A program made the translations under genes and the position numbers. Below, in pieces: positions 5,596 through 51,073 of a stretch of DNA of 64,000 bases (position 1 is its first letter; each line of letters begins with the position of its first letter). Under the pieces are notes generated by a model. That model did no database searches. It saw only the letters and a list, made by a program, of their open reading frames with translations, and was not told the origin of the DNA. The DNA comes from Myxococcota bacterium (GTDB lineage Bacteria; Myxococcota_A; UBA796; CAJQPC01): positions 1-64,000 of the forward strand of contig DASCPX010000190.1 of assembly GCA_036012755.1 (NCBI GenBank), in the 5' to 3' direction.

Positions 5596-5919
5596 ATGCT
5601 CATCGTGCTCACGCTCACCACAGGCTGCCGATCGCTCAGATCCGAGACCGAGGTCTCCACCTTCGAGGAGAACGAGCCCTTCGATCGCGTCCAGATCGAG
5701 ATCGACCTCGAGCTCACCGGCGACCCCGAGCGGATCGAGCTCACCACGACCAAGGGCGACATCGAGCTGCGCGTGCCACCTGGCGCCTACAGCATCCACG
5801 CCGAAAGCGAGACGGGTGATGTGGACATCGACGCCGGAGATCTCACGGACGACTCCGCCTCCGACAAGGTGATCACGACCCGAACCGACTCCGGCGACAT
5901 CCGCCTCGAAGGGGGGTAG
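5596..5919 (+). CDS. short DUF4097/adhesin-like lipoprotein, possibly internally deleted
   Basis: MLIVLTLTTGC lipobox, TTKGDIELRVP / SETGDVDI / TDSGDIRL repeats; unusually short. Confidence 0.6.
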   Translation: MLIVLTLTTGCRSLRSETEVSTFEENEPFDRVQIEIDLELTGDPERIELTTTKGDIELRVPPGAYSIHAESETGDVDIDAGDLTDDSASDKVITTRTDSGDIRLEGG

Positions 5920-6006
5920 TGAATCGGTACCGTCCTTCGAAGCGGCGCGGCGTCGAGGAACCGGCTCGGTGCTGCGACCGCTCCGGCTCGCCGTGAGCGA
6001 CAGGAT

Positions 6007-7562: not shown

Positions 7563-7595
7563 GAGGTCAGACTATCAGGACTCGGAGGTCCCGGC

Positions 7596-8096
7596 ATGAC
7601 AGCCCTGATCGCCCTCGCCTGCACCGCCGGGAGCCACGGCCCCGCCACGACAGAGGGGTCCCCCCAAGTGGCGCCGGGCGAGGTCCTGCCGACGCTCGAG
7701 CTGCACGATCTCGAGGGACGACCGCGCTCGCTGGCCGAGTTCGAGGGCGAGGTGCTCCTGGTCGACTTCTGGGCGACGTGGTGCGCACCCTGCGCGCTGT
7801 CCCTGCCGATCTACGACGGCTGGCAGCAACAGTACGGCGACGCCGGCCTGCAGATCCTGGCCGTGAGCGTGGACACCGCGAACGCGCCGGTGGCCCCCTT
7901 CGCCGAGGACCACGCCCCCAACCTCCTGGTCCTGCGCGACCCGGAGGGCACCGCGGCGACGAAGCTGGATCTCCCCGGCATGCCGACAGCCTTCCTGCTG
8001 GACCGCGAAGGCAAGCTGGCCGGCTACCACGTGGGCTTCGCAGAGGGAGAACAGCAGCAGGTCCTCGCCCAGCTCCTGCCGTTGTTGGAGGACTGA
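7596..8096 (+). CDS. TlpA/ResA-family thiol-disulfide oxidoreductase lipoprotein
   Basis: LVDFWATWCAPC, cis-Pro GMPT, GGAGG RBS. Confidence 0.92.
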   Translation: MTALIALACTAGSHGPATTEGSPQVAPGEVLPTLELHDLEGRPRSLAEFEGEVLLVDFWATWCAPCALSLPIYDGWQQQYGDAGLQILAVSVDTANAPVAPFAEDHAPNLLVLRDPEGTAATKLDLPGMPTAFLLDREGKLAGYHVGFAEGEQQQVLAQLLPLLED

Positions 8097-8794
8097 TGCT
8101 GGCTCTGCTGCTGTCTGGCTGCGTCGGCAGCGGTGAGATCCCTGCCCGGGTCAGCGGCCAGATCGTCGACGAGTACGAAGCCCCCCTCGGCCCTGGGCTC
8201 GTCATGATCGAGTTCGGACCGGTCCACGACGGTGCCTACCAGCTGGGAGCCCTGATCGACGATGACGGTCGCTTCACGGTGGATCTGCCCAGCGGCGGGA
8301 CCTGGGGCCTCCACCTCTTCACCGACGGCTACCAGTACCTGCCCGCCGAGATCACCATCGAGGACCACCAGCAGGTCATCCTCACGAGCATGATGATCTC
8401 CTGGGGGGTCTGGATGGACCTCACCGGCGAGCCCTCCTGGCCCACCCAGCCCACCGACGCGACGCTGGTCCGCATGCCGGTGGACGAGACCATCGACGAC
8501 AACCCGGTCATGGACGAGGTCTCGGTCGAGGACGCCGGCGACGGCTACCTGGAGCTCACGGCCGATGTCTGGGACCCGGACGAGGACCTCTCTCGCATGG
8601 TCCTCGCCTACGACAGCGCTACGGGGACCGGCTACGCGCTGAACCCGCCAGAGGCCCCGGACACCAAGGGCAACTACCCCGACGGCACCTACAGCACCCT
8701 CGCGATCGAGGACAGCGAGCTGGGGGACGGCCCCTGGTACTTCGTCGTGTCCGACAACATGTGCAACGACACGGACATCTGGATCCTGCCCTGA
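8096..8794 (+). CDS. lipoprotein with carboxypeptidase-regulatory-like (Ig/transthyretin-like) domain
   Basis: TGATG coupling; MLALLLSGC; VSGQIVD...DDDGRFTV. Confidence 0.65.
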   Translation: MLALLLSGCVGSGEIPARVSGQIVDEYEAPLGPGLVMIEFGPVHDGAYQLGALIDDDGRFTVDLPSGGTWGLHLFTDGYQYLPAEITIEDHQQVILTSMMISWGVWMDLTGEPSWPTQPTDATLVRMPVDETIDDNPVMDEVSVEDAGDGYLELTADVWDPDEDLSRMVLAYDSATGTGYALNPPEAPDTKGNYPDGTYSTLAIEDSELGDGPWYFVVSDNMCNDTDIWILP

Positions 8795-8795
8795 G

Positions 8796-9284
8796 CTACT
8801 CGACCAGGACCAGCTCCACAGAGGACTCCAGCTCGCGCCCGCAGCCGTCGACCACAACGCCGACGATCTCGATCGGCCGATCTGTCATCACTCCGATCTC
8901 GGCCGCGGTGATGATCGAGCGCAGGCCCAGGAACTCGACGTAGTCCTCTTCCTCGACCGAGGGGACCATCGTGACCACGGTGCCACCGAAGATCTCGCCG
9001 TCGTCCAGCATCGCGACGCTCAGATCGCTGCCGAAGCCGCCCGCGAGGGGCTCCTCCATGCCCCACACCTGGAGGCTGATGGTGACCATGTGCTGGCCCT
9101 GGGGGCCAAACGACACCAACAGATCGTCACCGTCAGTCAGCTCCTGGAACCCAGAGCCCAGGTTCCCCGAGCCGACCACCGCCTCTCCAGGCTCCGGATC
9201 GCGGCAGGGCAGCGGCTCCACATCCGGCGTCGGCCGACAGGAGCAGAGCACGGCCAGGCCGAGCGCAGCCAGGAGCAGCCTCAC
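8796..9284 (-). CDS. hypothetical lipoprotein
   Basis: GTGA-coupled start, VRLLLAALGLAVLCSC; GPQGQH motif. Confidence 0.65.
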   Translation of the reverse strand: MRLLLAALGLAVLCSCRPTPDVEPLPCRDPEPGEAVVGSGNLGSGFQELTDGDDLLVSFGPQGQHMVTISLQVWGMEEPLAGGFGSDLSVAMLDDGEIFGGTVVTMVPSVEEEDYVEFLGLRSIITAAEIGVMTDRPIEIVGVVVDGCGRELESSVELVLVE

Positions 9285-10432
9285 TCGGCGGCCTGGGAGG
9301 GGCAGTTGAAGAAGAGCGTGTTGTCGTTTCCGGGGATGGCGTTGCCCGCGAGCTCTTCCGAGAGCGACTCCGGCTCGCCCACCCACCCCAGCTCGACCAG
9401 CTCGTAGACGTCCGAGGGTGCCTTGGCGATGCTCTCGTCCTGGTCGACCGTGCTGTCGATGAGCACCACGTCGTCGTCGTGGGCGGGGTCGATGAGCACG
9501 CGCTGGACGCGCCACAGCGGGGAGTAGATGCGGTCGTCGGGGCTCTCGGACTCGGTCCGGGGGAAGCCGGAGATGATGTTGTTGTTGTCGGCCTTGTCGC
9601 CGTCGGCCGTCAGGTCGAGCTCCACTCCCCGCTCGCTGACCGCCCCCGCCTCTGCGCTGGTGCTGTTGCAGACGTCGTAGGTGGAGCCGCCTTCGCAGTC
9701 CCGGAAGAACACGAAGATGTCGGCGAAGGGCATCAGCGGGCGGGTCTCGCTGTCTTCGGCCGGAGGGAAGACGCCGTCGGTCTCGGTGAAGTCGAAGAAG
9801 GTGAGCTGGTACTGCTTGTGCCAGCCCTCCTGGAGCGGCACATCCAGCGCCGAGGTCCCCGGGTCCTCGACCGTGGGTTCGCCGTTGCCCTGGAGCTCCG
9901 TGCCGTCGAGCGCCAGGAGGCAGTGCATGATCGCGGCGTCCGGGCCGACCGAACCGCCGTGGTCGAAGACGACGAGCTCGACCCGGAGATCGCCCCCGGC
10001 CTCCGCCTGCTCGATGCCGTGGACGGACTTCAGGGCGTTGGGCTCGTAGTCGTGTGGCACGACCACCCGCCAGATCAGCCAGAAGGGTGAGTAGTCCATC
10101 TCCCCCGGGATGGTGGACAGCACGGGGTTCCCGACAGCCCGGTCGCGGTCGATGGCTCCGGTGGAGTCGAGGGGACAGGCGTCGTCGCCCTCGCGGCAGA
10201 ACCAGAAGATGTCCGCAGCGATGCGAGACGCGAAGCCGGCGAACCAGTAGGCCGAAGGATCCCCGGCGAAGAAACCGTTGAGGAGCCGGACGTGCCGGTC
10301 GCCGTTTTCCAGCACGTTCCCGGGCCACACGGTCTGGGCGACCTCGTCCACGGTCTGCTCGATGCGCCCGAGATCCTCCTCGACCGTCGGCTCGATGGGA
10401 GGACACCCGAGAAGCAGCAGAGCTGGGAGCAC
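9281..10432 (-). CDS. lipoprotein with duplicated YSP(F/L)W domains, function unknown
   Basis: MLPALLLLGC; DYSPFW and IYSPLW repeats, each followed by an (N/H)C motif. Confidence 0.7.
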   Translation of the reverse strand: MLPALLLLGCPPIEPTVEEDLGRIEQTVDEVAQTVWPGNVLENGDRHVRLLNGFFAGDPSAYWFAGFASRIAADIFWFCREGDDACPLDSTGAIDRDRAVGNPVLSTIPGEMDYSPFWLIWRVVVPHDYEPNALKSVHGIEQAEAGGDLRVELVVFDHGGSVGPDAAIMHCLLALDGTELQGNGEPTVEDPGTSALDVPLQEGWHKQYQLTFFDFTETDGVFPPAEDSETRPLMPFADIFVFFRDCEGGSTYDVCNSTSAEAGAVSERGVELDLTADGDKADNNNIISGFPRTESESPDDRIYSPLWRVQRVLIDPAHDDDVVLIDSTVDQDESIAKAPSDVYELVELGWVGEPESLSEELAGNAIPGNDNTLFFNCPSQAAE

Positions 10433-10501: not shown

Positions 10502-10993
10502 ATGCCTGCGCCGAGGGTCCTGGCAATGCTGTTTTCGACCGGCTGCGTCGGCACTGGCCAGGGCCTGCCGAATGTGCTCGTCGACGAAGCGCAGGGTCCG
10601 ACGACCTTCCTGGAGATCCAGACGCAGATCTTCGACACGACCTGCGCCCCGCAGTGCCACAGCGGAGGGGCCGCCTCCAAGGGCCTGAACCTCGAGCAGG
10701 GCCGCTCGCTGGACAGCCTGGTCGAGGTGCCCTCGGTCGAGCTGCCCGAGACCATGCGCGTCGCCCGGGGAGACGCCTACAACAGCTACCTGATCATCAA
10801 GCTCGAGGCCTACGACAGCCGACGGGTAGGCTCCCGGATGCCCCGCACCGGCCCCCCCTACCTCTCCAACCCCCAGATCCGTGCTCTGGGTCAGTGGATC
10901 GACGCCGGCGCCGCAGAGGACTGGGTCGCCGGCGACGACGAGCCGGAAGACACGGACGAGCCGGAAGACACCGGCCCGGGAGACAGCGAATGA
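10502..10993 (+). CDS. cytochrome c-like lipoprotein (CX3CH; planctomycete cytochrome C-like)
   Basis: STGC lipobox, CAPQCH, SYLIIKL..GSRMP..WIDAGA; acidic DEPEDT repeat tail. Confidence 0.75.
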   Translation: MPAPRVLAMLFSTGCVGTGQGLPNVLVDEAQGPTTFLEIQTQIFDTTCAPQCHSGGAASKGLNLEQGRSLDSLVEVPSVELPETMRVARGDAYNSYLIIKLEAYDSRRVGSRMPRTGPPYLSNPQIRALGQWIDAGAAEDWVAGDDEPEDTDEPEDTGPGDSE

Positions 10994-12069
10994 GCTGGCT
11001 GCTCTTGCTCGGGACCGCAGAAGCCGAACCCCGCATGGCCGTCCGGCAGGGTGTGCAGTGCGGGACCTGCCACGTGAACAACACCGGCGGTGGGATGCGC
11101 ACGGACTACGGCAACTCCTTCTCCGCGACGAACCTGCCGACCTGGACCGTGGACGGCAGCTTCGATCCCTGGCTGGGAGAGCGCGTGCGGGTGGGGACCG
11201 ACATGCGCGTCGGCGCGATGACCAGCTTCGCCGCTGACACCGAGCTCGACGGCATCGAGCGCCACGTCGACGCCAGCAGCTCCTTCGAGATGCCCGTCGG
11301 CAACCTCTTCCTGCAGCTCGAGGCCATCCCAGATCGCCTGTACGTCTACTTCGACGAGACCGTCGCTCCAGAGGGGGCCTCTGCGAGAGAGGCCTGGATG
11401 ATGTTCGAGGACACCTCCGGCCTCTACGTAAAGGCCGGGCGCATGCTCCTTCCCTACGGCCTGCGCATCCCCGACGACCAGGCCTACATCCGCCAGCAGA
11501 CCGGCTTCACCTACGCCAACCAGGACATGGCCCTGGAGCTGGGACTGGACCGGCGCCACATCTTCGCCGCGGCGGCGCTCAGCAACGGCAGCGGTGGGGG
11601 CGGCGACTCGAACCTGCCCAAGCAGCTCACCGGAAGCGTGGCCGCCGTGAACAGCTGGGGACGGATCGGCATGTCGGCCGCCTGGAACAACACCTCCACA
11701 AAGGACATGGAGTTCAAGACCGCCACCGGGGGCGTCCACGGCGGGCTGAGGCTCGGCCGCTTCGTGCAGCTGGCCGAGGTGGACTGGATCCACGGCATCA
11801 GCACCACCGAGACCTACGACCAGTGGGCGATCTACACCGAGACCGACTTCGAGGTGCTCAAGGGCCTGTACCTGCGCTTCGCCTTCGGAGCCTTCGACCC
11901 CATGGTCGCCCTCGAGGAGAACGAGCGAGACCGCTTCGTGCTTGGAATGAGCTGGTTCCCGAGGCAGTACCGGGAGCTCCGCATCGACTACCGGATCAAC
12001 CGCGACATCCCCCAACGCGTCGACGAAAACGCCAACGAGCTCGTCATCGAGCTCCACGCATTCCTATGA
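10990..12069 (+). CDS. outer-membrane beta-barrel with N-terminal monoheme CxxCH (cytochrome-porin fusion)
   Basis: EPRMAVRQGVQCGTCH after a short signal; amphipathic beta strands, YVKAGRM..PYGLR, C-terminal strand ELVIELHAFL. Confidence 0.75.
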   Translation: MSWLLLLGTAEAEPRMAVRQGVQCGTCHVNNTGGGMRTDYGNSFSATNLPTWTVDGSFDPWLGERVRVGTDMRVGAMTSFAADTELDGIERHVDASSSFEMPVGNLFLQLEAIPDRLYVYFDETVAPEGASAREAWMMFEDTSGLYVKAGRMLLPYGLRIPDDQAYIRQQTGFTYANQDMALELGLDRRHIFAAAALSNGSGGGGDSNLPKQLTGSVAAVNSWGRIGMSAAWNNTSTKDMEFKTATGGVHGGLRLGRFVQLAEVDWIHGISTTETYDQWAIYTETDFEVLKGLYLRFAFGAFDPMVALEENERDRFVLGMSWFPRQYRELRIDYRINRDIPQRVDENANELVIELHAFL

Positions 12070-12926
12070 AGCACGCGAAGACCACGGCGGTGCTGCTCGG
12101 GGCGACCTCGGTCCTCGCCGCTGGAGCCTGGGCAGCAGAGGATCCCTTCTGGGGCCAGGCGACCGCCGAGCGTGGCCGCATCGTCTACCGAGCGAACTGC
12201 GTCGGCTGTCACGGGGACGAGGGCGACGGCCAGGGTCCAGCCGCCGACACGATGTTCCCAGCGCCGCGGGATCTCACCGCCGCCGAGTACCGCTTCCGCA
12301 GCACTCCGACCGGTGCCCTGCCCACCCGCGACGACCTGCTCCGCACCCTGGAGCTCGGGCTTCCAGGCACGGAGATGCCGGCCTGGGGACGCCTGCTGGA
12401 TCCCGTCGAGCTGCGCTCGGTGGTGCTCTACCTCGAGACCCTCTCGCCCCGCTTCGAGCAGGGACCACAGACAGCGACGATCGTGCCCGGAGTCCCCCCG
12501 GAGGTGACGCCGGAGCTGCTCGCCCGTGGCTCCGAGATCTACGTCGAGCTGAAGTGCGGGGTCTGCCACGGTCCAGAAGGGCGAGGCGACGGCAAGGCAG
12601 CCGCGGGCCTGGCCGACGAGGGCGAGCCGAGCCCGGTCTTCGACTTCACCTTCGGGGTCTACAAGGGCGGAAACACCCCAGAGGATGTCTACCGGACCTT
12701 CATGACCGGCCTCAACGGCACGCCGATGCCCTCCTACGCAGCCTCCATCCCCGACGAGACGGACCGGTGGGCGCTGGTGCACTACGTCCGCTCGCTCACC
12801 CGCCCGCGCGGGCTCGGCTTCTACCTCGGCAACCGCGTGACCTGGCGGGACCCGCTCGGGCCCTACGCCACCAGGGTCGGACTCGCCGTCGAGACGCCAG
12901 TCGAGGATGAGATCCCGGAGTGGTGA
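12066..12926 (+). CDS. diheme cytochrome c
   Basis: CVGCH..GTEMP and CGVCH..GTPMP, signal peptide. Confidence 0.9.
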   Translation: MKHAKTTAVLLGATSVLAAGAWAAEDPFWGQATAERGRIVYRANCVGCHGDEGDGQGPAADTMFPAPRDLTAAEYRFRSTPTGALPTRDDLLRTLELGLPGTEMPAWGRLLDPVELRSVVLYLETLSPRFEQGPQTATIVPGVPPEVTPELLARGSEIYVELKCGVCHGPEGRGDGKAAAGLADEGEPSPVFDFTFGVYKGGNTPEDVYRTFMTGLNGTPMPSYAASIPDETDRWALVHYVRSLTRPRGLGFYLGNRVTWRDPLGPYATRVGLAVETPVEDEIPEW

Positions 12927-13462
12927 TGGACAAGTGGGAGCGGCTGAGCCGCGAGACCATGTACCGAACTGGCTTCTTCGAGGTCCACCGCGACCGGGTC
13001 CTGCGACCGGACGGTCAACAGATCGACTACGGCGTCGTGGAGTGCGGCCACTGCGTCGGGGTGCTCCCGATCTTGCCCGACGGCTCGGTGGTGCTGGTCC
13101 GCCAGTACCGCTACATCGCCGGCCGAGCGACCTGGGAGATGCCCACGGGCGGAGTCGACCCGGGAGAGAACCCCGAGCAGGCAGCCCAGCGCGAGCTCGC
13201 CGAAGAGGCCGGATACCGGGCCGGCTCGCTCCGACATCTCAGCACCTTCCACACCTCGAAGAGCAGCATCGACGAGACCGCCCACCTCTACCTGGGCGAG
13301 GCCCTCGAGCCCGCAGTCGCCGAGGGGGACGACACGGAGTTCATCGACACCCGGGTCTTCGCCTTCGACGAGGTCCTCTCGATGGTCGAGGCCGGCGAGA
13401 TCGTCGACAGCATGACCATCATCGCCGTCCTCCAGGCAGCCCTGGATCGCACCCGAGGATGA
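12926..13462 (+). CDS. NUDIX hydrolase (ADP-ribose pyrophosphatase-like)
   Basis: LVRQYRY, Nudix box GGVDPGENPEQAAQRELAEEAG. Confidence 0.92.
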   Translation: MDKWERLSRETMYRTGFFEVHRDRVLRPDGQQIDYGVVECGHCVGVLPILPDGSVVLVRQYRYIAGRATWEMPTGGVDPGENPEQAAQRELAEEAGYRAGSLRHLSTFHTSKSSIDETAHLYLGEALEPAVAEGDDTEFIDTRVFAFDEVLSMVEAGEIVDSMTIIAVLQAALDRTRG

Positions 13463-13910: not shown

Positions 13911-13923
13911 CAGGCGCCCGACA

Positions 13924-14658: not shown

Positions 14659-14822
14659 CGCCGCATCTCCTCGCCGACGGCGTCCTCGCCTCCCTCCTCG
14701 AGCAGGCGGTCGTGCTTCAGCGCCTGCTTCAGCCAGACCCCGAGGAGGAGGACCAGGGCCAGGACCATGCCCGCGATGGGGAGGTTGTCCGGCTGGGTCA
14801 GGATGTGGAGGAAGGTCTCCAT
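14655..14822 (-). CDS. small single-TM subunit of the Rieske/cytochrome b operon
   Basis: [21 protein letters not shown]...; coupled to neighbours on both sides. Confidence 0.75.
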   Translation of the reverse strand: METFLHILTQPDNLPIAGMVLALVLLLGVWLKQALKHDRLLEEGGEDAVGEEMRR

Positions 14823-18335: not shown

Positions 18336-18338
18336 GGG

Positions 18339-19061: not shown

Positions 19062-20033
19062 ATGCTCGTAGCCCTCTTCGCCTGCAACTGCCAAGGACCT
19101 GGTCCAGAGTCGCAACACAGCGACAGCGACGGCGCTTCCCCCTGGGAGGCCCAGCTCGAGGATCTCGACGGTGTCCTGCTGTCGGTGTGGGGGACCTCCT
19201 CCTCCAACATCTGGGTGACCGGCGCCGACGGTGGCGACGGACCAGAGGTCCACCACTTCGACGGCACGGACTGGATCCGCGAGGAGACCGGGGACACGGG
19301 ACACCTGTGGTGGGTCTTCGGGACGGGGGACCAGATCTGGTTCGTCGGCGAGGCGGGCAGGGTCCTGCGACGCGACTCCAGCGGGACCTACACGTCCCTG
19401 GTGAGCCCGAGTCAGGCCACGCTCTACGGCGCCTGGGGGGCCTCAGAGGACCTGATCTACTCCGTCGGCGGCTTCGTCGACGGCGACGGCGGCCCGGTCC
19501 TGCTCGCCATCGAGGGCGACACTGTCTCGGAGGTCGAGGGGCTGCCCTCGGGCATAGGAGACGACGAGGTCTTCTTCAAGGTCTGGGGCAGCGCGGAGGA
19601 CGACGTCTGGGTCATCAGCCAGAGCGGAACCGTGCTCCACTTCGACGGCAGCGAGTGGAGCCGCACCCTGCTCCCCGACGAGCCACGACTCGTCACGGTC
19701 CACGGCTCGAGCGAGGACGACCTCGTCATCGTCGGAGGCAGCTCCCAGGGGGTGATCTTCGAGCGCAGGGACGGGGCCGCCTGGGCTGAGGTCGAGCCCA
19801 CCGGCACCCAGCCGCTGATGGGGGTCTTCCTCGAGGACTCCCAGCGCGGCGTGGCCTCCGGCATGCGCGGGCAGGTGGTCGAGCGGCTCGACGGGACCTG
19901 GTCCGCCGTCCAGGGTCCAAGGCTCATCGCCGACTGGCACGGGGCCTGGATCGACGACACCGGACGTCTCTGGCTGGCCGGCGGCAACTTCATGCACCTC
20001 TCGGAGGGGACGCTCTACGTCCGAGAGGACTGA
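19062..20033 (+). CDS. beta-propeller lipoprotein (VWG-S repeats)
   Basis: Repeated L..VWG.S..D(V/I)W..G....LHFDG..W. Confidence 0.8.
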   Translation: MLVALFACNCQGPGPESQHSDSDGASPWEAQLEDLDGVLLSVWGTSSSNIWVTGADGGDGPEVHHFDGTDWIREETGDTGHLWWVFGTGDQIWFVGEAGRVLRRDSSGTYTSLVSPSQATLYGAWGASEDLIYSVGGFVDGDGGPVLLAIEGDTVSEVEGLPSGIGDDEVFFKVWGSAEDDVWVISQSGTVLHFDGSEWSRTLLPDEPRLVTVHGSSEDDLVIVGGSSQGVIFERRDGAAWAEVEPTGTQPLMGVFLEDSQRGVASGMRGQVVERLDGTWSAVQGPRLIADWHGAWIDDTGRLWLAGGNFMHLSEGTLYVRED

Positions 20034-25905: not shown

Positions 25906-26724
25906 TCAGTAGTGCTCGATCGGCTCCAGGGAGACGCCGACGACGATGTCGGACTCGACCTCTACCTCTGTCCGCGACAGCAGCTGGAGCCGGCCACCGG
26001 ACTCCAGGCGGCCGAAGGTGTCCACCGTGACGATCCCCGCGGGCAGGTTCGGCACCACGAAGCGGCCCGAGCTGCCCGTGTAGGTGCGGCTGTCCACGGG
26101 CTCCCAGCCTTCGGTGTAGTAGACGCCGTCGGTGGAGCCGTCGATCCTCACGATGGCGTTGGAGACACCGAATGAGTCGCAGTCGTGCACGGAGCCGACC
26201 AACAGCCCGGTCCCAGGCTCGACGGTCAGGGACAGGGCGCTGGCCCAGGTCTCCTGCTCCTCGGGCGTGACGAGCCAGGCCCACCCGTTCACGGAGGCCG
26301 CGGTGACCCGGCGGCTCACCCACAGGGTGGTGTCCAGGTAGCCGTCGTAGGAGACGCGGGCGTGGCCCCGGAAGCCATCGCTGGTCACGGGCACGGTGAC
26401 CGCGACCCGGCCGGACTTTCCGGCGTCGGCAAACCCCGTTCCGATCTCGGTCCCGCCAGCGTCGAAGACCTGGACCTCGGCGGCCGGGGGCAGGTCAGAG
26501 GCCGTGGGATCGGCGAGGGTCCGCACGTAGCCGGTGAGCTCGACGCTGGATCCTGACGGGTCGTCCTGACGGTTGCTGCCGACACAGCTCAGGCGACCCT
26601 CCGCCGCGCCCGTCGGAGCCCCAGCGGGCTCGTCGTCGAGGTACTCCGGATCGGCGGGCTGGGAATCCCGGCTGTCGTCGGGGTTGGGGTTGCAGAGACC
26701 CCCAAGGAGCAGGATCAGGTTCAT
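25906..26724 (-). CDS. lipoprotein with carboxypeptidase-regulatory-like domains
   Basis: ATGA-coupled; MNLILLLGGLC; GSVHDCD..GRFVVPNLPAG. Confidence 0.65.
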   Translation of the reverse strand: MNLILLLGGLCNPNPDDSRDSQPADPEYLDDEPAGAPTGAAEGRLSCVGSNRQDDPSGSSVELTGYVRTLADPTASDLPPAAEVQVFDAGGTEIGTGFADAGKSGRVAVTVPVTSDGFRGHARVSYDGYLDTTLWVSRRVTAASVNGWAWLVTPEEQETWASALSLTVEPGTGLLVGSVHDCDSFGVSNAIVRIDGSTDGVYYTEGWEPVDSRTYTGSSGRFVVPNLPAGIVTVDTFGRLESGGRLQLLSRTEVEVESDIVVGVSLEPIEHY

Positions 26725-28973: not shown

Positions 28974-29038
28974 CTGGAGCTCACACGGCCTGCCTGTCGA
29001 CAAATCCAGGGTAACCCCGGTGACGTTAGAGTGGGCCG

Positions 29039-29506
29039 ATGTGGATGGGCCGCCAGCGCCACTGCAGCCTGCTCCTGGGAGCCGCGACAGTGTTCGTGTC
29101 GGGCTGCGAGCTCGACAACTCCTATCGCCCCTACCCGGAGCCTGGCTTCGACACCTACGTCGTTTCGGTGCAGCCCATCGTGTCCGAGAGCTGCGCTTCG
29201 CTGGGCTGCCACGGCACCTACGATCGCCGCCTGACCCTCTTCGCAGAGGACTACCTCCGGGGCGAGGCGGCCGTGACCGGGACTCCCCTCGAGGACCGCC
29301 TGACCGAGGCCGAGCTGGCCTGGAACTACGACGGGATGCGGATGCGGCTGGCTGACGAGGTCGACGCGGACACGAGCTTCCTGTTGCTCAAGTGCCTGGA
29401 TCCCGAGCTGGGGGGAATCCGCCACGCAGAGGACGAGGTGGTCTTCGACTCGGTCGACGACCCCGACTACCGCGCCCTGCGCGACTGGATCGAGGAGGGG
29501 CTCTGA
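29039..29506 (+). CDS. lipoprotein with CX4CH heme-like motif
   Basis: VSGC lipobox; VQPIV..SCASLGCHG; SFLLLK..GGIRH..Y..LRDWI. Confidence 0.7.
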   Translation: MWMGRQRHCSLLLGAATVFVSGCELDNSYRPYPEPGFDTYVVSVQPIVSESCASLGCHGTYDRRLTLFAEDYLRGEAAVTGTPLEDRLTEAELAWNYDGMRMRLADEVDADTSFLLLKCLDPELGGIRHAEDEVVFDSVDDPDYRALRDWIEEGL

Positions 29507-34043: not shown

Positions 34044-34640
34044 ACCCTCCCCCGCCGCACCCAGGCAGAGCGCAGCGCGACCACACGGTCGGCCCTGTTG
34101 AAGGCGACCGTGGAGACCCTCGTGCACAGCGGTCACCGGGGGGCCACCAACGCCGAGATCTGCAGGCGGGCCCGGGTCTCGAGGGGAGCCCTGCTCCACC
34201 ACTACGCGACCAAGGCAGAGCTCTTCACGGCGGCTGTCGAGCACCTCTTCGAGCTCCGCCACGCGGAGCTGAGGCGGCTCGATGAAGAGGTCCCCCCGAG
34301 CCAGCGGGTCGACGAGGCCTTTCGTCGTCTCTGGGCGATCTACGCAGGCCCCACCAGCGTCGCCTGGATGGAGTTGGTCATCGCCGCCCGCTCGGATCCG
34401 GAGCTCCGGGCCCGGCTCCAGGAGGTCAGCCTTCGCCTCGAAGAGCGCGCCGAAGACACCCTGAGCCGGCTCTTCGGCCTGTCGAGCAGCGTGCCCGCCC
34501 GACCCGGCATCCGCATGGTCCTGGCCCAGCTCGACGGGCTGGCCTTTCACCACCTGCTCCACGGTGACGAGCAGGCGGCGACCGAAGCCCTGGCGCTCTT
34601 CAAGGCGCTGGTCGAGCCCTTCGTCCAGGAGGCCCGGTGA
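34041..34640 (+). CDS. TetR/AcrR family regulator
   Basis: RRTQAERS..TR..LL, VSRGALLHHY.TK.ELF. Confidence 0.93.
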   Translation: MTLPRRTQAERSATTRSALLKATVETLVHSGHRGATNAEICRRARVSRGALLHHYATKAELFTAAVEHLFELRHAELRRLDEEVPPSQRVDEAFRRLWAIYAGPTSVAWMELVIAARSDPELRARLQEVSLRLEERAEDTLSRLFGLSSSVPARPGIRMVLAQLDGLAFHHLLHGDEQAATEALALFKALVEPFVQEAR

Positions 34641-35815
34641 TCCTGCTGTTGTCCTGTACGAACACACAGTGGGCCCCCGACGCGGTGCTCCCCCTGCTGG
34701 CACTGCCCGGCTGCAATGCGGTCAGCGTGGTCGAGGGCGCCTTCGTCCCGCAGGGGAGCGAGCTCACGGCCAGCCCGGAGCCCTGCACCGCCCCCTTCCA
34801 CGCCACCGCGGGGGCCCGGGACAGCACGCTGCTCATCGAGTCCGACGCCGAGCTCCGCATCGAGGATCTCGCCGGCGGGTCCCTGTCCAACCCCGTCGTC
34901 CTGCAGCGCAGCGGCGAGGTCCTCGTCCACGTCGACGCCACGGACACCTACTGGCTGAGCGTCACCTGCCTGGAGGGCTGCGAGGCCGAGTACACGCGCT
35001 ACCCCGTGGTCCTCATGCACGGCATGGGCGGCTCGGACGCCTTCGGCGGCGTGCCCTACTTCTTCCGGGTCGAGGAGACCCTGGAAGAGCTCGGCTTCGA
35101 GATCCAGGCACCTCCAGTCACGCCCTTCGCCACCGCCGCCCAGCGCGCTCCAGAGTGGGAAGTGCACCTCGAGCTGCTCCGAGCAGAGGGAGTCGGCCGC
35201 AAGTTCAACCTGCTCGGCCACTCACAGGGCGGGCTGGACGCTCGCTACCTCGTCGGCGGCCTCGGTCGCGCCGATCTCGTCGCCTCGATCACCACGGTCG
35301 GCTCCCCACACCAGGGAACCCGCACCGCGGACTTGATCTACGGCGTGGTCGAGGACGGCACGGTCGATGCCGCCTGGGTGGACGTCGGGGCAGAGGTCTT
35401 TGCGGCCTTGTTCGGCCTCGAGGGCGACGACAACAGCCTCGTCGAGGCCATGGAAGGGCTCACGACCGAGGCGATGGCCGAATTCAACGAGACCGTGCCC
35501 GACGACCCCGAGATCCCGCTGTGGTCCTGGGCCGGCGGGACCTGCGGCGCCCTCGAGTTCGACTGCCAGCAAGCTCGCGACGGAGAGATCGTCGATCCCC
35601 TCCTAGCTCCCACCTGGCTGATCCTCTGGCTCGACGGCCAGGACAGCGACGGCATGGTGCCCATCGACTCGGCGACCTGGGGCACCTTCCTGGGAGAGCT
35701 GAACGCGGATCACGCTGATTTGGCCGGCATCTTCGAGGACGAGGCCACCGACGCCTTCGACCACCTCGCCTTCTACACCGACGAGACCCGGCGCCTCCAC
35801 GCCCAGGGACTGTGA
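34637..35815 (+). CDS. triacylglycerol lipase-like alpha/beta hydrolase lipoprotein
   Basis: YPVVLMHG, GHSQGG, SPHQG, SDGMVP, ADH. Confidence 0.9.
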   Translation: MILLLSCTNTQWAPDAVLPLLALPGCNAVSVVEGAFVPQGSELTASPEPCTAPFHATAGARDSTLLIESDAELRIEDLAGGSLSNPVVLQRSGEVLVHVDATDTYWLSVTCLEGCEAEYTRYPVVLMHGMGGSDAFGGVPYFFRVEETLEELGFEIQAPPVTPFATAAQRAPEWEVHLELLRAEGVGRKFNLLGHSQGGLDARYLVGGLGRADLVASITTVGSPHQGTRTADLIYGVVEDGTVDAAWVDVGAEVFAALFGLEGDDNSLVEAMEGLTTEAMAEFNETVPDDPEIPLWSWAGGTCGALEFDCQQARDGEIVDPLLAPTWLILWLDGQDSDGMVPIDSATWGTFLGELNADHADLAGIFEDEATDAFDHLAFYTDETRRLHAQGL

Positions 35816-37209: not shown

Positions 37210-38208
37210 ATGCTGACCATCCTCCTGGCCTGTACACCGAGCGCGACCCCGGACTCGGACCCGGCGACCGACGACTCTGTCGCCTCGATCCCGGACAACT
37301 GCGACCTGCAGCCCACGGGCGAGGTCAGCCTGCCCGCGGACGAGGCCCCTCACGGCGAGGACGTCGAGTGGTGGTACTGGACCGCCCACGTCCAGGACGA
37401 AGAGGGCCGCTGGTACGGCATCGAGGAGACCTTCTTCCTCATGCAGATGGGCACCTACACCGCCACCAGCGCGCACGTGGCCGTGGCGGACATCTCGGCG
37501 GGCACCTTCACCTACGACGTGAACTTCGTCATGGAGGGCCAGGAGAGCACCACCGATGGCTTCGACCTCGTCTCGGAGCAGCAGACCGCCACCGGCAGCG
37601 ACGGCCAGGAGACCCTCCACGGCGAGATCGATGGCTACACCCTGGACCTCGAGCTGAGCGCTTCGAAGCCCCCCGTCTTCCAGCACGGCGACGGCTACCA
37701 CGACTACGAAGTCGGCGGCTACACCTGGTACTACAGCCGCGAGCGCATCGACACGACCGGCACGCTGCTGGTGGGGGAAGAGAGCCGCGCCGTGGAGGGG
37801 CTGGCCTGGATGGACCACCAGTGGGGGGACCTCGGGGACATCTCCACGTCGGGCTGGGACTGGTTCGCGCTGCAGCTCGACGATGGCAGCGAGGTGATGC
37901 TCTTCCTCACGCGGGGCTCGGACACCCTGGTCGGCGGGTCCTTCACGGACTCTGGCTGCAACACCACCGAGCTGGGGCCAGAGGACTTCCAGGTAGAGGC
38001 CCTCGGCGAGTGGACCAGCCCAGCCACGGACTGCACCTACCCACAGGGATGGAGGCTCGAGGTCCTCGGCAAGGATCTGACCGTCACCCCCGAGCTGGCC
38101 GACCAGGAGGTGGACAACGTCATGAACACCTACTGGGAGGGGGCCTCGGTGGTGAGCGGCGATCTCTCAGGTCGCGCCTACGTCGAGCTCGCTGGCTACT
38201 GTCTCTGA
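37210..38208 (+). CDS. AttH/CrtC lipocalin-like lipoprotein
   Basis: H..EWWYW, WYYSR, G.AWMDHQWG, GWDWFALQLDDG, YWEG, GRAYVEL.GY. Confidence 0.9.
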   Translation: MLTILLACTPSATPDSDPATDDSVASIPDNCDLQPTGEVSLPADEAPHGEDVEWWYWTAHVQDEEGRWYGIEETFFLMQMGTYTATSAHVAVADISAGTFTYDVNFVMEGQESTTDGFDLVSEQQTATGSDGQETLHGEIDGYTLDLELSASKPPVFQHGDGYHDYEVGGYTWYYSRERIDTTGTLLVGEESRAVEGLAWMDHQWGDLGDISTSGWDWFALQLDDGSEVMLFLTRGSDTLVGGSFTDSGCNTTELGPEDFQVEALGEWTSPATDCTYPQGWRLEVLGKDLTVTPELADQEVDNVMNTYWEGASVVSGDLSGRAYVELAGYCL

Positions 38209-43765: not shown

Positions 43766-45061
43766 TCAGTCCGCGGGTACGGCCAGCACGACGTTCAGGT
43801 TGGCGGTGCTGGTCGTGCCCGTCGGGAGCTTGCCGTCCTGGTGGGTGCCACCGCTGGAGACGTGCTCCTCCGACTCGTTGACGACGCCGTCGCCGTCCTC
43901 GTCGGCGTAGGCCCACAGGTACGCGATGCTGTTCCCTGGCACCCGCAGGCTGTAGCTCACCGAGGACTGACCGCTGAGATCCGCCCAGGAGAAGGTCTGC
44001 ACGTCGTAGGAGTTGTCCTCCAGGGTAGAGATCGCCACGTCACCGCTGGGCCGGTACTTCAGGGCCATGACGTAGACCTCGGAGCCGGTGGGGAGGTCGT
44101 CGAAGACACCGTCGTAGACGCTCACCTCGCCACTCCAGCTGACGAAGGGCACGATGTTGATGCCGGACTCGTCGCCCAGCGGGACCTGGATGTCCATGCC
44201 CGTGAGATCCGCATCACCGACGGTGATGGGGTTGCCGTCCACGTCAGGCTCGGAGACGTAGGCCCCCCACCTGTCGAGGGGGTCGGCCATCTCGTTGCCG
44301 TTGCTGTCCCACGCGGCGATGAGCGCCATCGGGCCCCAGTCCACGCAGCTGGACAGCGTGTAAGCCGCCTCTGCGCCCCCGCCGGTGGAGACGGGATCGA
44401 TCCAGACCTCGTGGTAGGGGCCCAGCCCTTCCTGGTCGCGCAGCATCGCCATCGCCTCGCCCCCGGCGTAGCTGGCGGTGATGATCACGTCCCCCGAGAT
44501 GGTCATGACGTCGCCGGGGCAGCCCCCGGGCGTGTAGCACTCCGGTACGAAGATCGTGATGTCGGCGCCCTCGTGCTCGCCGTCCGCTACGACCTCGATG
44601 GTCTGAGGGTATGCCCCCACGTAGTCGTCGGTCCCGATGACCCGGTCTCCCCAGTAGTCCACGACCGCGTAGACCTGCACCGGCCCCGCGTGCTCCATGG
44701 AGAGCGCGAGGGAGAAGTCGTTCTCGCCGGTGGTGGGCTCGCGGATGACCTGCTCGGCCAGGTGGTGCTTGCCATCAGGGCTCTCGTCCTCTTCGTAGGC
44801 GGTGACGAAGATCCAGCCGAAGGGGTACTCGTCCCCGCAGGTCGAGTCCGCCCACTCCACGCTCTCCCTGGTGCCGTCGGCGCCCGTGCGGGTGACCACC
44901 ACCGACACCGTTCCCTCCACGGTGGCTTCGATGGGACCCGACTCGGAGTCGTCGCCGCCCTGCTCGGAGTCGGGCTCGGAGTCCGGGCTCGCCTCGCTGT
45001 CGTCAGCGGGTGGGGTCCAGCCGCAGCCAACGACCAACAAGGACAACAAGAAACCGGGCAT
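43766..45061 (-). CDS. hypothetical lipoprotein with repeated Ig-like/acidic Ca-binding motifs
   Basis: LVVGC lipobox; three repeats ending in D.(N/D)G(N/D)-like motifs. Confidence 0.65.
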   Translation of the reverse strand: MPGFLLSLLVVGCGWTPPADDSEASPDSEPDSEQGGDDSESGPIEATVEGTVSVVVTRTGADGTRESVEWADSTCGDEYPFGWIFVTAYEEDESPDGKHHLAEQVIREPTTGENDFSLALSMEHAGPVQVYAVVDYWGDRVIGTDDYVGAYPQTIEVVADGEHEGADITIFVPECYTPGGCPGDVMTISGDVIITASYAGGEAMAMLRDQEGLGPYHEVWIDPVSTGGGAEAAYTLSSCVDWGPMALIAAWDSNGNEMADPLDRWGAYVSEPDVDGNPITVGDADLTGMDIQVPLGDESGINIVPFVSWSGEVSVYDGVFDDLPTGSEVYVMALKYRPSGDVAISTLEDNSYDVQTFSWADLSGQSSVSYSLRVPGNSIAYLWAYADEDGDGVVNESEEHVSSGGTHQDGKLPTGTTSTANLNVVLAVPAD

Positions 45062-45127
45062 GCTCCCTCCAAGGAAGAGAGCAGTATAGCGCCTGAGAGG
45101 CGCATTCTGCGGGCGTTGTCACCCCCT

Positions 45128-48100: not shown

Positions 48101-51073
48101 GTTCGGCCTCCCCTCCTCGTCCACGACCGTCGCGCTGATGCGGTGGTTTCCACCCTGCTCCGGCTCGAAGACGCAGGTGTCCGCCTTGTCCTTCAGCTCG
48201 AGGGTGCAGTCGACCGGGTCCTCCTCGATCTCGGCCCAGGCTCCGTCGAGATTGCCCCACCTCAGGCGGGACAGCGTCAGGGTCGCCTCGGCGGCGACCG
48301 GCTCACCGTCGATGTCGACGACGATGACCTCTGCCCGGATGGGCTCGTCCTTCTCATAGAAGGGCTTGTCGGGCTTCACTCCGACATAGAGGCTGGAGGG
48401 GTGGACCAGGAAGGTCTCCTGGCGGCTCCAGCGCTGGCGGTTGACGTCCACGACCGTGGCCTGTGCGCTGACGGTCATCGGACGAGCCGGGTTCACCGCG
48501 AGGAAGTCGATCTGCAGGTAGTGGTTGCCCGCGGCGTCCGTGCTCCCCTCGAGGGACTCCACGCTGGACTGCCCCCAGCTCCCGCCCCAGTGGTACCAGC
48601 TCCACCAGGGAGTCCAGCTCCCGAAGCGCCAGTCGCTCCAACCCTGGGGCTGGAAGCTGCCCTCGCTGGCAGAGACCGTCCAGGTGACCGGTGCGTCCGG
48701 GAGCGCGCCGCCGGAGTAGTAGGCGGCGTTGACCGAGACCACGGCGCTCTCGCCCAGCACGTAGCTCTGGGGGTCCAGGCTGGTCGTGACCTCGAACTCG
48801 GGGCGGCGGAACTCCTGCACCTGGAAGGAGTGGTAGTGACTGCCTCGGCTGGAGTTCAGCTCCAGGCTCGCGTAGCCCAGCGCGGGGGTGTCGGGCAGCT
48901 CCAGCTCGAGGTCGAAGCCACCGTGCTCGCTGAGGTCGGTCTTGCCCTTGCTCATCTCGTTGCCGTAGGCATCCCGCGCGACCCAGGTCACCTCCTCGGG
49001 TGCTCCTGCGAAGGACTGCAAGGCGCTGCCAGGCTCGATGACGAAGGGGCGCACCCAGCCCTTGACGTAGACGGTCTCGCCGGGCCGATACATCTTGCGG
49101 TCGTCGATGACGTACCAGACCAGGCTGTCGATCGGTCCGCTGTGGGTCCAGCCGCCGTACTCGTTCCACCAGTGGGGGTACTCGGGCAACAGGGCCACGT
49201 CGTCGCCGAGCTCGGCGACCAGGGCGTGGGGGCCAGTCGAGCTGTCGTAGCCCTTCAGCACCGCCACTCCGTCGGCGTCGGTCTCGCCGCTGGAGTCGCC
49301 GCCGAGGAGGCTCAGCTTCACACCGGCGAGGGGCTCGCCGCTGCCGAGGTCCGTGGCCCAGCCCATCACAGACGGCTGGTCGGCGAAGGCGGTCAGGCCG
49401 ATGTCGGTCGCCTGGACCCATGCCATGACCCGAGTGGGGTACTCCTCGCGCACGGTCGGCTCGACCCACACGAAGAGGTGGCCCTTGCCGCCCTCGAGGT
49501 AGGGGCCCAGGTCGATGGAGGTCTCGACGAGTTCGTTCTCGACGTAGTCCTCTACCTCGACGCTGCCGTCGAAGACCTTCTCCCCCGGGGGCATGCCGCG
49601 GAGGTAGCCGTCGTAGACGACGTCCCGCATCCAGTCGCTCACCGCCTCGTAGTCGGAGACCTCGACCCTGGTGACGCGCACGCGGAGCCTCTCGTAGTTC
49701 GTGCTCCAGACAGAGAACGCGGGCGGCGCCGCGGGGTCCAGCGCGAGCACGGCGGTGTTCGGGCCCTGGAGCTTCGGCCATGCGGGGCCGACCTTGAACT
49801 TGCGGGTCTGCTCCTTGGCCAGCCTCTGGCCGAAGGCGTCCGGGAGCCCCGCCTCGACCGTCACGGTGTAGGTCGTGTCCGAGACCGTCTCACCGTAGAT
49901 GGTCAGGGTGCTCCAGCTGGCCGTGACCTGCATGTGCTCGATGGCGGGCTCGACGCTGACCATGGAAGGGTCCAGCGGCTGATCGAGCTCATTGTTGAAG
50001 TACAGCCAGAAGGGGGAGTCGGGGGAGCAGTGCTTGGGTCCCTCGCTGCAGTCCTGGCTCTCGAGCTTCAGCGGGTCATAGGTGCGGAAGCCGCTGACCT
50101 GGCGCTCGGTGGTGGTGCGCGGCCCCTCCGCCGAGGGGGCCCCCTTGTCCAGGACCCAGCTGTAGTCGGTGGCTGCCTTCAGCGGCGTCATCGGGCGCAG
50201 GAGGAAGGCTCGGCCCTCCTCGAACTGGCGGTTCTCCAGGTAGGGATCTGCTGCGATCTCCTCTTGTCTGGCCTTTCGCAGGGGCACGACGGCGCCGTCA
50301 CCCTCGAGGGTGAGGTGCGAAAGCACGCCGTCGTCCACCCGCTGATCGAAGGCGACCAGGAGGACGGGGGTGAGGCCCACCTGGGAGTACTGCTGGGGGT
50401 ACCACTCGGTGACGCTCACCGGGGGCGTGGAGAAGCTGAAGGAGTCTCCGGTCTCCGGAATGGTGACCTCGTAGTCCGTGGCCATCGGGAAGCGAGGATC
50501 GGGATCGAAGACGATGGTGCGCGTACCCAGCCAGCGCCACTGGCCGTCCGGCTCGGGGCTCAGCGTCACGGGGATGGTCTGGGCGGCTTCGTCCTGGGTG
50601 GTCACGGCCACCATCGGCTGGTTGAAGGTGACGCTCATCGACGGCGCCAGGCCCACGTCACCCTCTGGCGAGGTTCGAACCACCTTCACCGGGCCGGGAT
50701 CGACCTCGACGGCTTCGAGGTCCGTGGGCGGTGGCGGCCAGCCCAACAGCTCGGTGGCGCCCGTGCGCGGAGGAGGGACCGTCTCCTCTCGTCGAGCGAA
50801 GGCGCGCCGATCGCCCTCTGGCTCTTCGAGCCGCTCGGCGCGGGCCAGCAGGGCCTCGACCTCGGCAGCTGTGAGGGCCTCCACCTCTGGTTCGGGGCCG
50901 CTCTCCATGGCTCGCGGAGCCGTCGGGCGTTCCGCCTCGGACAGCCGCATCTCCAGGCCGACGAGATCCTCTGCCGCGGGGTGGAAGTCGATCTGCGGCA
51001 CCGGCTCGGGCGTGACGATCGGGCTGTCGGGCTCGACCCTGTTCTGGCAGGAGAGAGCAACGAGAAGGAGCAT
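45128..51073 (-). CDS. bacterial alpha-2-macroglobulin family lipoprotein
   Basis: Big_5-like FNQPM, DR.MYRPGE, VQEFRRPEF, LPDSLTRYR, thioester YPYDCSEQ, AEEMYHPE.FGRS. Confidence 0.95.
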   Translation of the reverse strand: MLLLVALSCQNRVEPDSPIVTPEPVPQIDFHPAAEDLVGLEMRLSEAERPTAPRAMESGPEPEVEALTAAEVEALLARAERLEEPEGDRRAFARREETVPPPRTGATELLGWPPPPTDLEAVEVDPGPVKVVRTSPEGDVGLAPSMSVTFNQPMVAVTTQDEAAQTIPVTLSPEPDGQWRWLGTRTIVFDPDPRFPMATDYEVTIPETGDSFSFSTPPVSVTEWYPQQYSQVGLTPVLLVAFDQRVDDGVLSHLTLEGDGAVVPLRKARQEEIAADPYLENRQFEEGRAFLLRPMTPLKAATDYSWVLDKGAPSAEGPRTTTERQVSGFRTYDPLKLESQDCSEGPKHCSPDSPFWLYFNNELDQPLDPSMVSVEPAIEHMQVTASWSTLTIYGETVSDTTYTVTVEAGLPDAFGQRLAKEQTRKFKVGPAWPKLQGPNTAVLALDPAAPPAFSVWSTNYERLRVRVTRVEVSDYEAVSDWMRDVVYDGYLRGMPPGEKVFDGSVEVEDYVENELVETSIDLGPYLEGGKGHLFVWVEPTVREEYPTRVMAWVQATDIGLTAFADQPSVMGWATDLGSGEPLAGVKLSLLGGDSSGETDADGVAVLKGYDSSTGPHALVAELGDDVALLPEYPHWWNEYGGWTHSGPIDSLVWYVIDDRKMYRPGETVYVKGWVRPFVIEPGSALQSFAGAPEEVTWVARDAYGNEMSKGKTDLSEHGGFDLELELPDTPALGYASLELNSSRGSHYHSFQVQEFRRPEFEVTTSLDPQSYVLGESAVVSVNAAYYSGGALPDAPVTWTVSASEGSFQPQGWSDWRFGSWTPWWSWYHWGGSWGQSSVESLEGSTDAAGNHYLQIDFLAVNPARPMTVSAQATVVDVNRQRWSRQETFLVHPSSLYVGVKPDKPFYEKDEPIRAEVIVVDIDGEPVAAEATLTLSRLRWGNLDGAWAEIEEDPVDCTLELKDKADTCVFEPEQGGNHRISATVVDEEGRPNTTSFTVWITGGEQAPDRSVAMEEVTLVPNAEIYAPGDVAEVLVLSPFAPAHGLLTLRRDGLVETRAFSMDSASKVLEVPITEASVPNIVVEVDLVGSRERTDDEGNPMPDRSNRVAYASGMLDLKVPPLSRALSVEPVPAETHLGPGGSTTVTVQVNDSEGKPVEGAEVALIAVDEAVLALSAYQLPDPLEIFYMSRAAGVAETHLRGLVVLGDPNAVVAQPTGSAGESDDFDMLDGIGYAMEEEEIRTSSKIASPPMEPMSAAKPEKKSRSKDKASGHSQASPITVREDFSAIALFAPREQTEADGTATLTLELPDSLTRYRIMAVAADDISFGHGEATVVARKPLMLRPSPPRFLNFGDHVELPLVVQNQTDEDMVVELAVETTNIVISADNRGRRFTVPANDRREVRLPLDADAAGTARFQVVAQSGGMSDAARFTLPVWTPATSEAFATYGEIDEGAILQPVARPDDVWEQFGGLEITTSSTALSALTDAVIYLANYPYDCSEQIGSRVMAVAALRDVLEAFEAEELPSQAELESAVSRDLQRLEKRQKGNGGWSFWSDMSDEPYLTVHVTHSLVRAKEAGYPVSDSTLDAAMGYLRKIESHIPHYYSERARRNIIAYSVYVRHLDGDDDAGRARKLAKVPLSELSLEAQAWILPTLEAKGQTESVALIIRNLENKVSETAGAAHFVTSYGDTNDYVLLHSSRRTDAVVLESLIEVRPEHDLVPKVVRSLLGHRVAGRWSTTQENSFVLLAMNRYFRTYESTEPDFVARAWLGEDYAGSRQFEGYSPDRARIDIPMSELRDDDLVLQKDGEGRLYYRIGMRYAPKDLDLEPADRGFVVTRVYEPIDDEGDVTLDDDGVWHIAAGARVRVRVSMVSEGRRTYVALVDPLPAGLEAQNPELAVTGTLPEDPSAESGNWWWWGTWYQHQNLRDERAEAFTTLLYAGVYDYSYVAVATTPGEFVVPPAKAEEMYHPETFGRSGTDRVVVD

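Follow-up and report, generated by a model that had tools for sequence, protein, structure and literature searches.

Ultra-short, uncharged leaders as candidate Sec signals in a bacterial order of the class UBA796

Bacterial signal peptides ordinarily comprise 15-30 residues and open with a basic n-region. A sequence-only reading of the window under study, a stretch of 64,000 nucleotides of contig DASCPX010000190.1 from a myxococcotal bacterium, had claimed that eleven of its genes specify ultra-short, charge-free export signals, and each of these leaders was found to be encoded at the position and on the strand that had been given. On the forward strand, MLIVLTLTTGC (5596..5628, cysteine at residue 11) precedes a DUF4097 protein (gene 5596-5919), MTALIALAC (7596..7622, cysteine 9) a TlpA/ResA-like thioredoxin (7596-8096) whose nearest homologue has a 16-residue leader with arginine, MLALLLSGC (8096..8122, cysteine 9) the product of gene 8096-8794, which is without a Pfam family match, MLVALFAC (19062..19085, cysteine 8) that of gene 19062-20033, (M)ILLLSC (34637..34657, cysteine 7) an alpha/beta hydrolase (34637-35815) and MLTILLAC (37210..37233, cysteine 8) a CrtC/lipocalin-like protein (37210-38208). 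The twelve-residue MSWLLLLGTAEA (10990..11025, forward strand), of the signal peptidase (SPase) I type, starts a CxxCH-bearing porin-like protein (10990-12069); the earlier designation of this product as a porin survives as a lead from the Atlas, where the nearest named cluster is porin O/P (12% of members), a Pfam porin match being absent. The reverse strand encodes (M)LPALLLLGC (10403..10432, cysteine 10; gene 9281-10432), MNLILLLGGLC (26692..26724, cysteine 11; gene 25906-26724) with leucine at -1, outside the usual glycine, alanine or serine, MPGFLLSLLVVGC (45023..45061, cysteine 13; gene 43766-45061) and MLLLVALSC (51047..51073, cysteine 9; gene 45128-51073), the last on a bacterial alpha-2-macroglobulin (A2M) whose A2M domains were identified with Pfam; in a homologue of 55% identity the leader reads MLLLAALSC. 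Although predominant, the short form is not the only one in the window, normal leaders being carried by a dihaem cytochrome c (12066..12926, forward strand; lysine-bearing) and by a lipoprotein-type gene (29039..29506, forward strand; a long arginine-bearing leader with cysteine 23). For 12 proteins of the window, no NCBIfam model corresponding to such leaders was found.

The start codons of these genes were inspected individually, and the seven that had been regarded as pinned (8096, 10432, 10990, 26724, 34637, 45061 and 51073) held on examination of the upstream sequence. Those at 8096, 10990, 26724 and 34637 overlap the stop codon of the upstream gene, and no ATG, GTG or TTG lies between the in-frame stop and the starts at 10432 (stop 8 codons upstream; GAGG box), 26724, 34637, 45061 (stop 19 codons upstream; GGAG box) and 51073, such that 34637 and 45061 are the first starts, and 51073 the first canonical start, after the in-frame stop; for 26724 near-cognate codons are likewise lacking within 25 codons. 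GTG serves as the start codon at 34637 and 10432. Two further starts are likely, namely 7596 (GGAG box and non-coding upstream sequence) and 5596, which has the same attributes and is unpinned owing to GTG codons 15 and 20 codons upstream. The remaining two have possible upstream starts: at 19062, initiation from an ATG 11 codons upstream would extend the leader to 19 residues, arginine included, and a GTG is situated 14 codons upstream, and at 37210 a GTG lies 20 codons upstream in non-coding sequence. A gene caller blind to the motif selected ten of the eleven starts from coding potential alone, placing that of 45061 7 codons downstream, and the lengths of the A2M protein (1981 amino acids) and the TlpA-like protein (166 amino acids) were matched in public gene calls. 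A promoter scan of positions 44900-45300 found nothing. An additional leader at 10526 (MLFSTGC) was dropped, as an ATG 8 codons upstream yields a 15-residue leader with arginine, and one at 28946 is ambiguous in the same manner.

The pattern extends to the whole genome (6.73 Mb in 250 contigs, 95.95% complete), in which 5588 genes were called with the said caller, a home-made codon model written without the motif and using the coding score in its choice of starts. Cysteine is in strong excess at residues 7-10 (189, 315, 248 and 183 genes, respectively, as compared to 65.6 expected at each), with residue 8 being the most frequent position. A lipobox cysteine at residues 6-13 was detected in 793 of the 5588 genes, i.e. 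about 14%, against 16.7 expected from internal start codons, and one at residues 14-30 in 192 genes against 28.2 expected; SPase I-type leaders of the short class, defined by rule as having 8-15 residues and neither lysine nor arginine before the core, numbered 225 (20.5 expected), and those of normal form 143 (21.6 expected). The lipobox rule is conservative, since among the 55 window genes it recovers, besides the leader at 10990, only 8 short leaders. It also bars charges near the cysteine, so that the low count of short leaders with lysine or arginine before the cysteine (15 of 793) is partly forced, and a rule-free count was therefore made, according to which 736 of the 870 genes with a first cysteine at residues 7-10 have no charged residue (lysine, arginine, aspartate or glutamate) before it (background 25%); alanine, glycine or serine occupies -1 in 676 of these 736 (92%), and leucine in 28. 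Within the hydrophobic core of the short leaders leucine accounts for 46-62% at each position, being present at -3 and at -2 of the lipobox in 62% each, and the mean Kyte-Doolittle hydrophobicity of the core is 2.92 as compared to 2.43 for the normal leaders of the same genome. All 46 contigs with at least 40 genes carry short leaders, which therefore represent neither an island nor a contaminant. A Tat signal, which is marked by a twin-arginine motif within a long n-region (PMC9360617), does not describe them, as arginine is found in none of the 11 window leaders; Tat-like starts number only 25 in the genome.

One explanation for such counts would be that the starts are mis-called, translation in fact beginning further upstream, at a canonical or near-cognate codon, and producing ordinary signal peptides. 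This is favoured by the high G+C content, which gives long open frames, by the ambiguity of the window starts at 19062, 37210 and 10526, and by the finding that 145 of the 793 short leaders have a canonical upstream start yielding a leader of 14-35 residues with lysine or arginine, some of these 145 calls probably being truncated; the upstream coding profile, moreover, is partly circular as an argument for the short starts given that the caller's choice of start uses the coding score. Against it, a test free of any start model located a lipobox cysteine within 13 codons of an in-frame stop in 152 of 5514 gene frames as compared to 34 of 28914 non-gene frames (146 and 10, respectively, if a start codon is required). 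Among the 793 short leaders, the cysteine lies at most 13 codons from an in-frame stop in 140, the start is coupled to an upstream stop in 170, a Shine-Dalgarno box was recognized for 347 and a TANNNT box 5-8 nucleotides upstream for 149 (0.1% at internal starts), with at least one of coupling, Shine-Dalgarno box or TANNNT box in 564, and for 386 no canonical or near-cognate upstream codon would yield a leader of 14-35 residues with lysine or arginine. The upstream in-frame content of lysine and arginine is the same for short-leader genes as for other genes, and the same script returned 36 short leaders in 210 genes here but 1 in 223 genes of five class genomes outside the order (80 kb per genome, two of the five being poorly covered by the model; 16 longer leaders were found), which indicates that it does not simply clip normal signals. 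Mis-called starts can thus account for a minority of the class, and it is very improbable that they account for the whole. Chance is excluded as the origin of the pattern by the cysteine peak at residue 8, by the 793 leaders as compared to 16.7 expected and by the stop-pinned frames of the above test. With regard to upstream signals, a -10-like box was present, among genes that come first in their operon, for 89 of 382 with short leaders, for 3 of 53 that encode normal lipoproteins and for 200 of the 2172 others. TANNNT is positioned exactly 6 nucleotides before 12% of the short-leader starts and 5% of all other starts, its TAG or TAA supplying an in-frame stop four codons upstream. The upstream motif makes it likely that many short-leader genes are leaderless, and the spacing of TANNNT suggests that leaderless mRNA is widespread in this genome.

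The distribution of the trait was followed through the class UBA796, which has been placed in Myxococcota_A (10.64898/2026.07.10.737566), and bears out the earlier proposal of a minimal signal code at the level of the lineage, in that the code is genome-wide, marks proteins for which export is obligatory and hardly occurs outside the order. A strict DNA pattern (ATG, five hydrophobic codons, alanine or glycine, cysteine) scored 48 hits in this genome, 41 of them at called starts, 59-91 in genomes of a sister genus and 14-41 in family f7, and was entirely missing from 10 of the 34 other genomes of the order; none of 257 genomes from outside the order contained more than 7 hits. A looser pattern together with sampled DNA revealed a gradient within the order, with intermediates of 12-15 residues bearing a single arginine, and the sampled DNA of ten order genomes contained 20 short and 43 longer leaders in 543 genes. 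A variable-gap pattern is noisy and indicates a trend only, its median ratio to control being 2.25 in class outgroups and 3.0-12.0 in the families of the order.

The cargo of the short leaders was sampled in 139 of the 816 supported genes, taken from the 20 densest regions and mostly represented by the first 400 residues, of which 69 gave Pfam matches. The families identified include BamA and two more Omp85 proteins, ZnuA, imelysin, multihaem c cytochromes together with dihaem proteins, LolA-like proteins, amidases, sulfatases, CotH, and MopE and FG-GAP repeats; several of the hydrolase families are neutral as to location, and no ribosomal, NTPase or transcription-factor family was encountered among the 69 matched carriers. 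Motif counts over the full set are of the same kind, with Walker A in 4 of 1018 short-leader proteins as compared to 190 of 4213 others, a protein-kinase motif in 0 of 1018 as compared to 48 of 4213, and CxxCH pairs in 12 of 1018 as compared to 12 of 4213. BamA, which scores above the TIGR03303 cut-off, starts with MIHLLLAFWIALA at a GTGA that it shares with the ABC-ATPase gene upstream, one LolA starts three codons after a stop, and 10 of the 18 called OmpA-domain proteins have, by eye, leaders of 9-13 residues with neither lysine nor arginine before the core; two small lipoproteins, presumably of about the size of Pal, keep normal leaders. Across the order, the orthologues of BamA comprise both short uncharged forms, one of them directly after a stop, and normal forms, and BamD likewise exhibits both. 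BamD, considered as a test lipoprotein, was set aside because it mostly has an SPase I-type leader in this class and so tested the SPase I class only; with no lipobox in most members, it may be a soluble periplasmic protein here. For 120 A2M homologues we recorded 62 long lipoprotein leaders with lysine or arginine, 9 short uncharged leaders, 5 short leaders with and 2 long leaders without these residues, and 42 that were unclassified. For carriers such as BamA, LolA, ZnuA, the multihaem cytochromes and A2M, normal signals prevail among the homologues. As homologues carry either form, short and normal leaders appear interchangeable on the same proteins.

Comparison with established signal systems established both kinship and departure. 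With the Sec/SPase II signals of the E. coli Lpp type, the short lipobox leaders share a hydrophobic core ending in glycine, alanine or serine followed by cysteine and the presence in the genome of Lgt, LspA, Lnt and LolA, and homologues bear normal leaders with the same lipobox; they differ in lacking a basic n-region, in having an h-region that is present though shorter than usual, in the usual leucine at -2 and in a cysteine mostly at 7-10 rather than at 15-22 as in the normal leaders of this genome. The Sec/SPase I (LepB-cleaved) signals are approached through a hydrophobic core and Ala-X-Ala on BamA, LolA and OmpA-domain proteins, small residues occupying -3 and -1 on periplasmic and outer-membrane cargo, and through the three S26 peptidases encoded; SPase I signals, however, generally have 20-30 residues with a positive n-region (PMC5427057), in contrast to the 8-15 residues, with no lysine or arginine before the core, found here. 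Judged on sequence, the short leaders resemble both signal types, depart from the n-region and length definitions of these classes (PMC9360617, PMC8048626, PMC5427057, PMC5963308) and represent a variant outside the canonical class. No published description of the trait was found in the literature on short or uncharged signals, on the lineage and on Lpp deletions, most subscription papers lying outside the search, nor was one found by a term search of two papers on the lineage.

The sequence-only reading had further supposed that the Sec apparatus, the signal recognition particle (SRP), Lgt or LspA would be adapted to such signals, and this was borne out in part, by order-wide substitutions in SecY (Ile187Ala/Ser) and SecA (Leu372Tyr); LspA keeps both catalytic aspartates, the SRP is retained and multiple Lgt copies are not confined to genomes with the trait. 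The genome was found to encode one SecY, SecA, SecD/F, YidC, Ffh, FtsY and the three S26 peptidases, together with five Lgt, two LspA, one Lnt above the cut-off, two LolA and two deformylases. Several candidate adaptations were rejected: both LspA copies keep the catalytic aspartates D123/D141 and unchanged motif residues; an expansion of Lgt is no mark of the trait, as trait-free members of the class have 4 and 7 copies; loss of the SRP does not apply, as Ffh and FtsY are present, the Ffh M domain being found in 60 of 61 class genomes and 37 of 37 order genomes; and loss of deformylase, which would leave a neutral formyl-methionine N-terminus, is contradicted by the two copies present. In most members of the order the Ffh M domain (G000:C27:286758-287063 in this genome) has two more residues in its loop region than that of class outgroups. 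In one class genome (G037), with a completeness score of 100%, neither Ffh nor FtsY nor a full-length SecY was matched, which probably reflects assembly gaps, as its congeners have Ffh. All five Lgt copies retain R143 and R239 (the roles of key residues in Lgt and LspA are taken from PMC8048626, where the Lsp dyad is numbered after P. aeruginosa), and the position of His103 is occupied by Tyr, Met, His, Thr/Ser or Asn; the genome also contains a tandem lspA-lspA-lgt-lgt cluster (G000:C59:99943-102591).

Two further explanations bear on the fate of the leaders. In the first, the leaders would direct export but stay uncleaved, or their cysteine unlipidated, in that the short hydrophobic N-terminus would anchor the protein in the membrane or a divergent paralogue of Lgt would lipidate it without cleavage by LspA; in its favour are the length of the leaders, which are too short to span the bilayer, the four Lgt copies lacking His103 and the leaders with leucine at -1, and contrary to it are the predominance of small residues at -1, the intact LspA aspartate pair and Lnt, the same lipobox in homologues with normal leaders, and the requirement of BamA-type barrels with Ala-X-Ala for release into the periplasm, so that we deem it unlikely. 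In the second, YidC alone or an accessory SecY-like component would serve the short leaders and SecYEG the normal ones, as the coexistence of two leader classes in one genome might suggest; the continuum of lengths with single-arginine intermediates, the free switching of class among orthologues and the single SecY copy obtained by profile search, which likewise led us to reject a second SecY-like gene, render such a separate route a very remote prospect. The short leaders are instead probably working Sec signals of about half the usual length that have been reduced to their h- and c-regions, and that bring about export and, where a lipobox is present, lipid anchoring. In these genes methionine is followed by 4-10 strongly hydrophobic, uncharged residues and a lipobox cysteine or Ala-X-Ala. 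The sequences establish this pattern and its extent, the starts of the pinned subset, the exported character of the carrier families and a complete set of pathway genes; the steps that follow are proposed. The basic n-region would have been lost, and the ordinary enzymes Lgt, LspA and Lnt are predicted to lipidate and cleave the lipobox leaders, LepB cleaving the others. The leucine-rich core, more hydrophobic than that of normal leaders, would engage SecA or the SRP, and SecY, its higher hydrophobicity possibly compensating for the lost charge. Orientation would then be set by the free N-terminal amine and an acidic early mature region in place of lysine and arginine. Lgt and LspA, whose activity lies in the outer leaflet of the bilayer, would need only a lipobox held at that face, so that a membrane-spanning helix would be unnecessary.

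The changes in the translocase raise the question of what permitted the n-region to be lost. At SecY position 187, alanine (28) or serine (21) is found in 49 of 50 order sequences, and isoleucine (27) or methionine (1) in 28 of 28 outgroups, the exception stemming from a genome that is 8% contaminated and has a second SecY copy; with this exception left out, it is the only column without a residue common to the 49 order and 28 outgroup sequences. I187 is a member of the pore ring (PMC2171872), substitutions in which were often super-active in a cell-free screen; the data of this screen give log2 fold changes of 0.47 for I187M, 0.28 for F192S and 2.45 for I191S (PMC13537251). SecA position 372 is tyrosine in 23 of 23 order sequences and leucine or valine in 11 of 11 outgroups, and bulky residues at the neighbouring A373 confer Prl phenotypes in E. 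coli (bioRxiv 10.1101/2021.08.31.458331). The pore ring of SecY and the Stem of SecA are sites at which prl-type translocases are substituted, and the changes of the order resemble the E. coli prlA (SecY) and prlD (SecA) alleles in affecting a pore-ring isoleucine and the residue beside A373; they differ in being natural and fixed order-wide, and the classic prl positions I191, I278, I408, Y134 and A373 retain their residues, as does H484 in 22 of 23 sequences. Neither I187A/S nor L372Y is among the tested prl-type alleles in the portions of the data available, where only I187M occurs, and tests of SecA 372 may exist elsewhere. SecA Val514Lys and Tyr784Arg (E. coli numbering) also occur in 23 of 23 order genomes and in 0 of 11 outgroups.

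As a final step of the mechanism, SecY Ile187Ala/Ser and SecA Leu372Tyr could relax proofreading in the manner of E. coli prl alleles, such that n-regions erode in some families, and we regard this permissive translocase as a plausible enabling step that is unproven and on balance doubtful, the causal link being unproven because both changes are order-wide and the short-leader trait is patchy. The most far-reaching form of this proposal, which we advance with the same reserve, is that the order has a naturally signal-permissive Sec system (SecY 187 and SecA Stem 372) that made the basic n-region dispensable, so that in several families some 1000 envelope proteins, BamA among them, would be exported and lipidated through uncharged signals of 6-12 residues, often from leaderless mRNAs with a -10 box 6 nucleotides before the start. 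The alternative, which differs only in this final step and shares the claim of export, is that ordinary Sec suffices, leucine-rich leaders of 6-12 residues working, perhaps less efficiently, on any translocase, with lineage drift as the cause and the SecY and SecA changes as unrelated markers; it has close to an even chance of being correct, roughly the same likelihood as a permissive translocase. A 1992 study by Hikita and Mizushima reportedly demonstrated that in E. coli a lack of charge can be made up for by hydrophobicity, with a longer rather than a shorter stretch, and short uncharged leaders are sporadic elsewhere, as among the A2M homologues. The patchy trait set against uniform translocase changes agrees with this alternative, as does the slightly more ribosomal-like codon use of normal-leader lipoproteins (p 0.003, a small effect), a pattern that would fit retention of the better signal by abundant proteins. 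On the opposite side stand the scarcity of the strict pattern in the 257 genomes outside the order and the singularity of Ile187, a pore-ring residue, among the SecY columns.

Other observations weigh against the proposed chain of events at several of its steps. The residue at -2 is mostly leucine, which lies outside the standard list of the lipobox consensus, [LV][ASTVI][GAS]C (PMC8048626), and His103 is kept in only one of the five Lgt copies. The early mature region of short-leader proteins is no more acidic than that of the normal lipoproteins of the genome (p 0.14-0.57), for which reason more acidic mature N-termini were rejected as a compensation. With respect to the translocase, the E. 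coli F192S mutant, the closest tested match to the second SecY change of the order, is near wild type, both the SecY and the SecA change are shared by members of the order in which short leaders are few, and SecA 372 is one of 8 order-specific columns judged against only 11 outgroups, so that Leu372Tyr may simply mark the lineage.

Roughly one gene in six, the essential bamA among them, seems to manage without a basic n-region and the usual length, thereby offering a natural library of about 1000 minimal signals along with two candidate translocase alleles. If the reading of the leaders as reduced Sec signals is true, the lower bound for substrates of SecA/SecY, Lgt and LspA would be reset, and it would become apparent whether relaxation of the prl type can reach fixation in a natural lineage. 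It would also mean that predictors which rely on the tripartite signal structure may miss part of the envelope proteome in this group.

As regards the remaining genes of the window, the regions 10502-19034 and 25906-30603 encode c-type cytochromes, the CxxCH porin-like protein and a ferredoxin, as well as, by the look of the sequences, Rieske- and cytochrome b-like proteins, and possibly represent an electron-transfer module; a multihaem cytochrome c3 gene and a DUF3570 gene are located further on from this cluster. Positions 53071-64000 form a single minus-strand run which, from the appearance of the N-termini, comprises molybdenum-hydroxylase-like, methylmalonyl-CoA-mutase-like, acyl-CoA dehydrogenase and hydantoinase-like genes.

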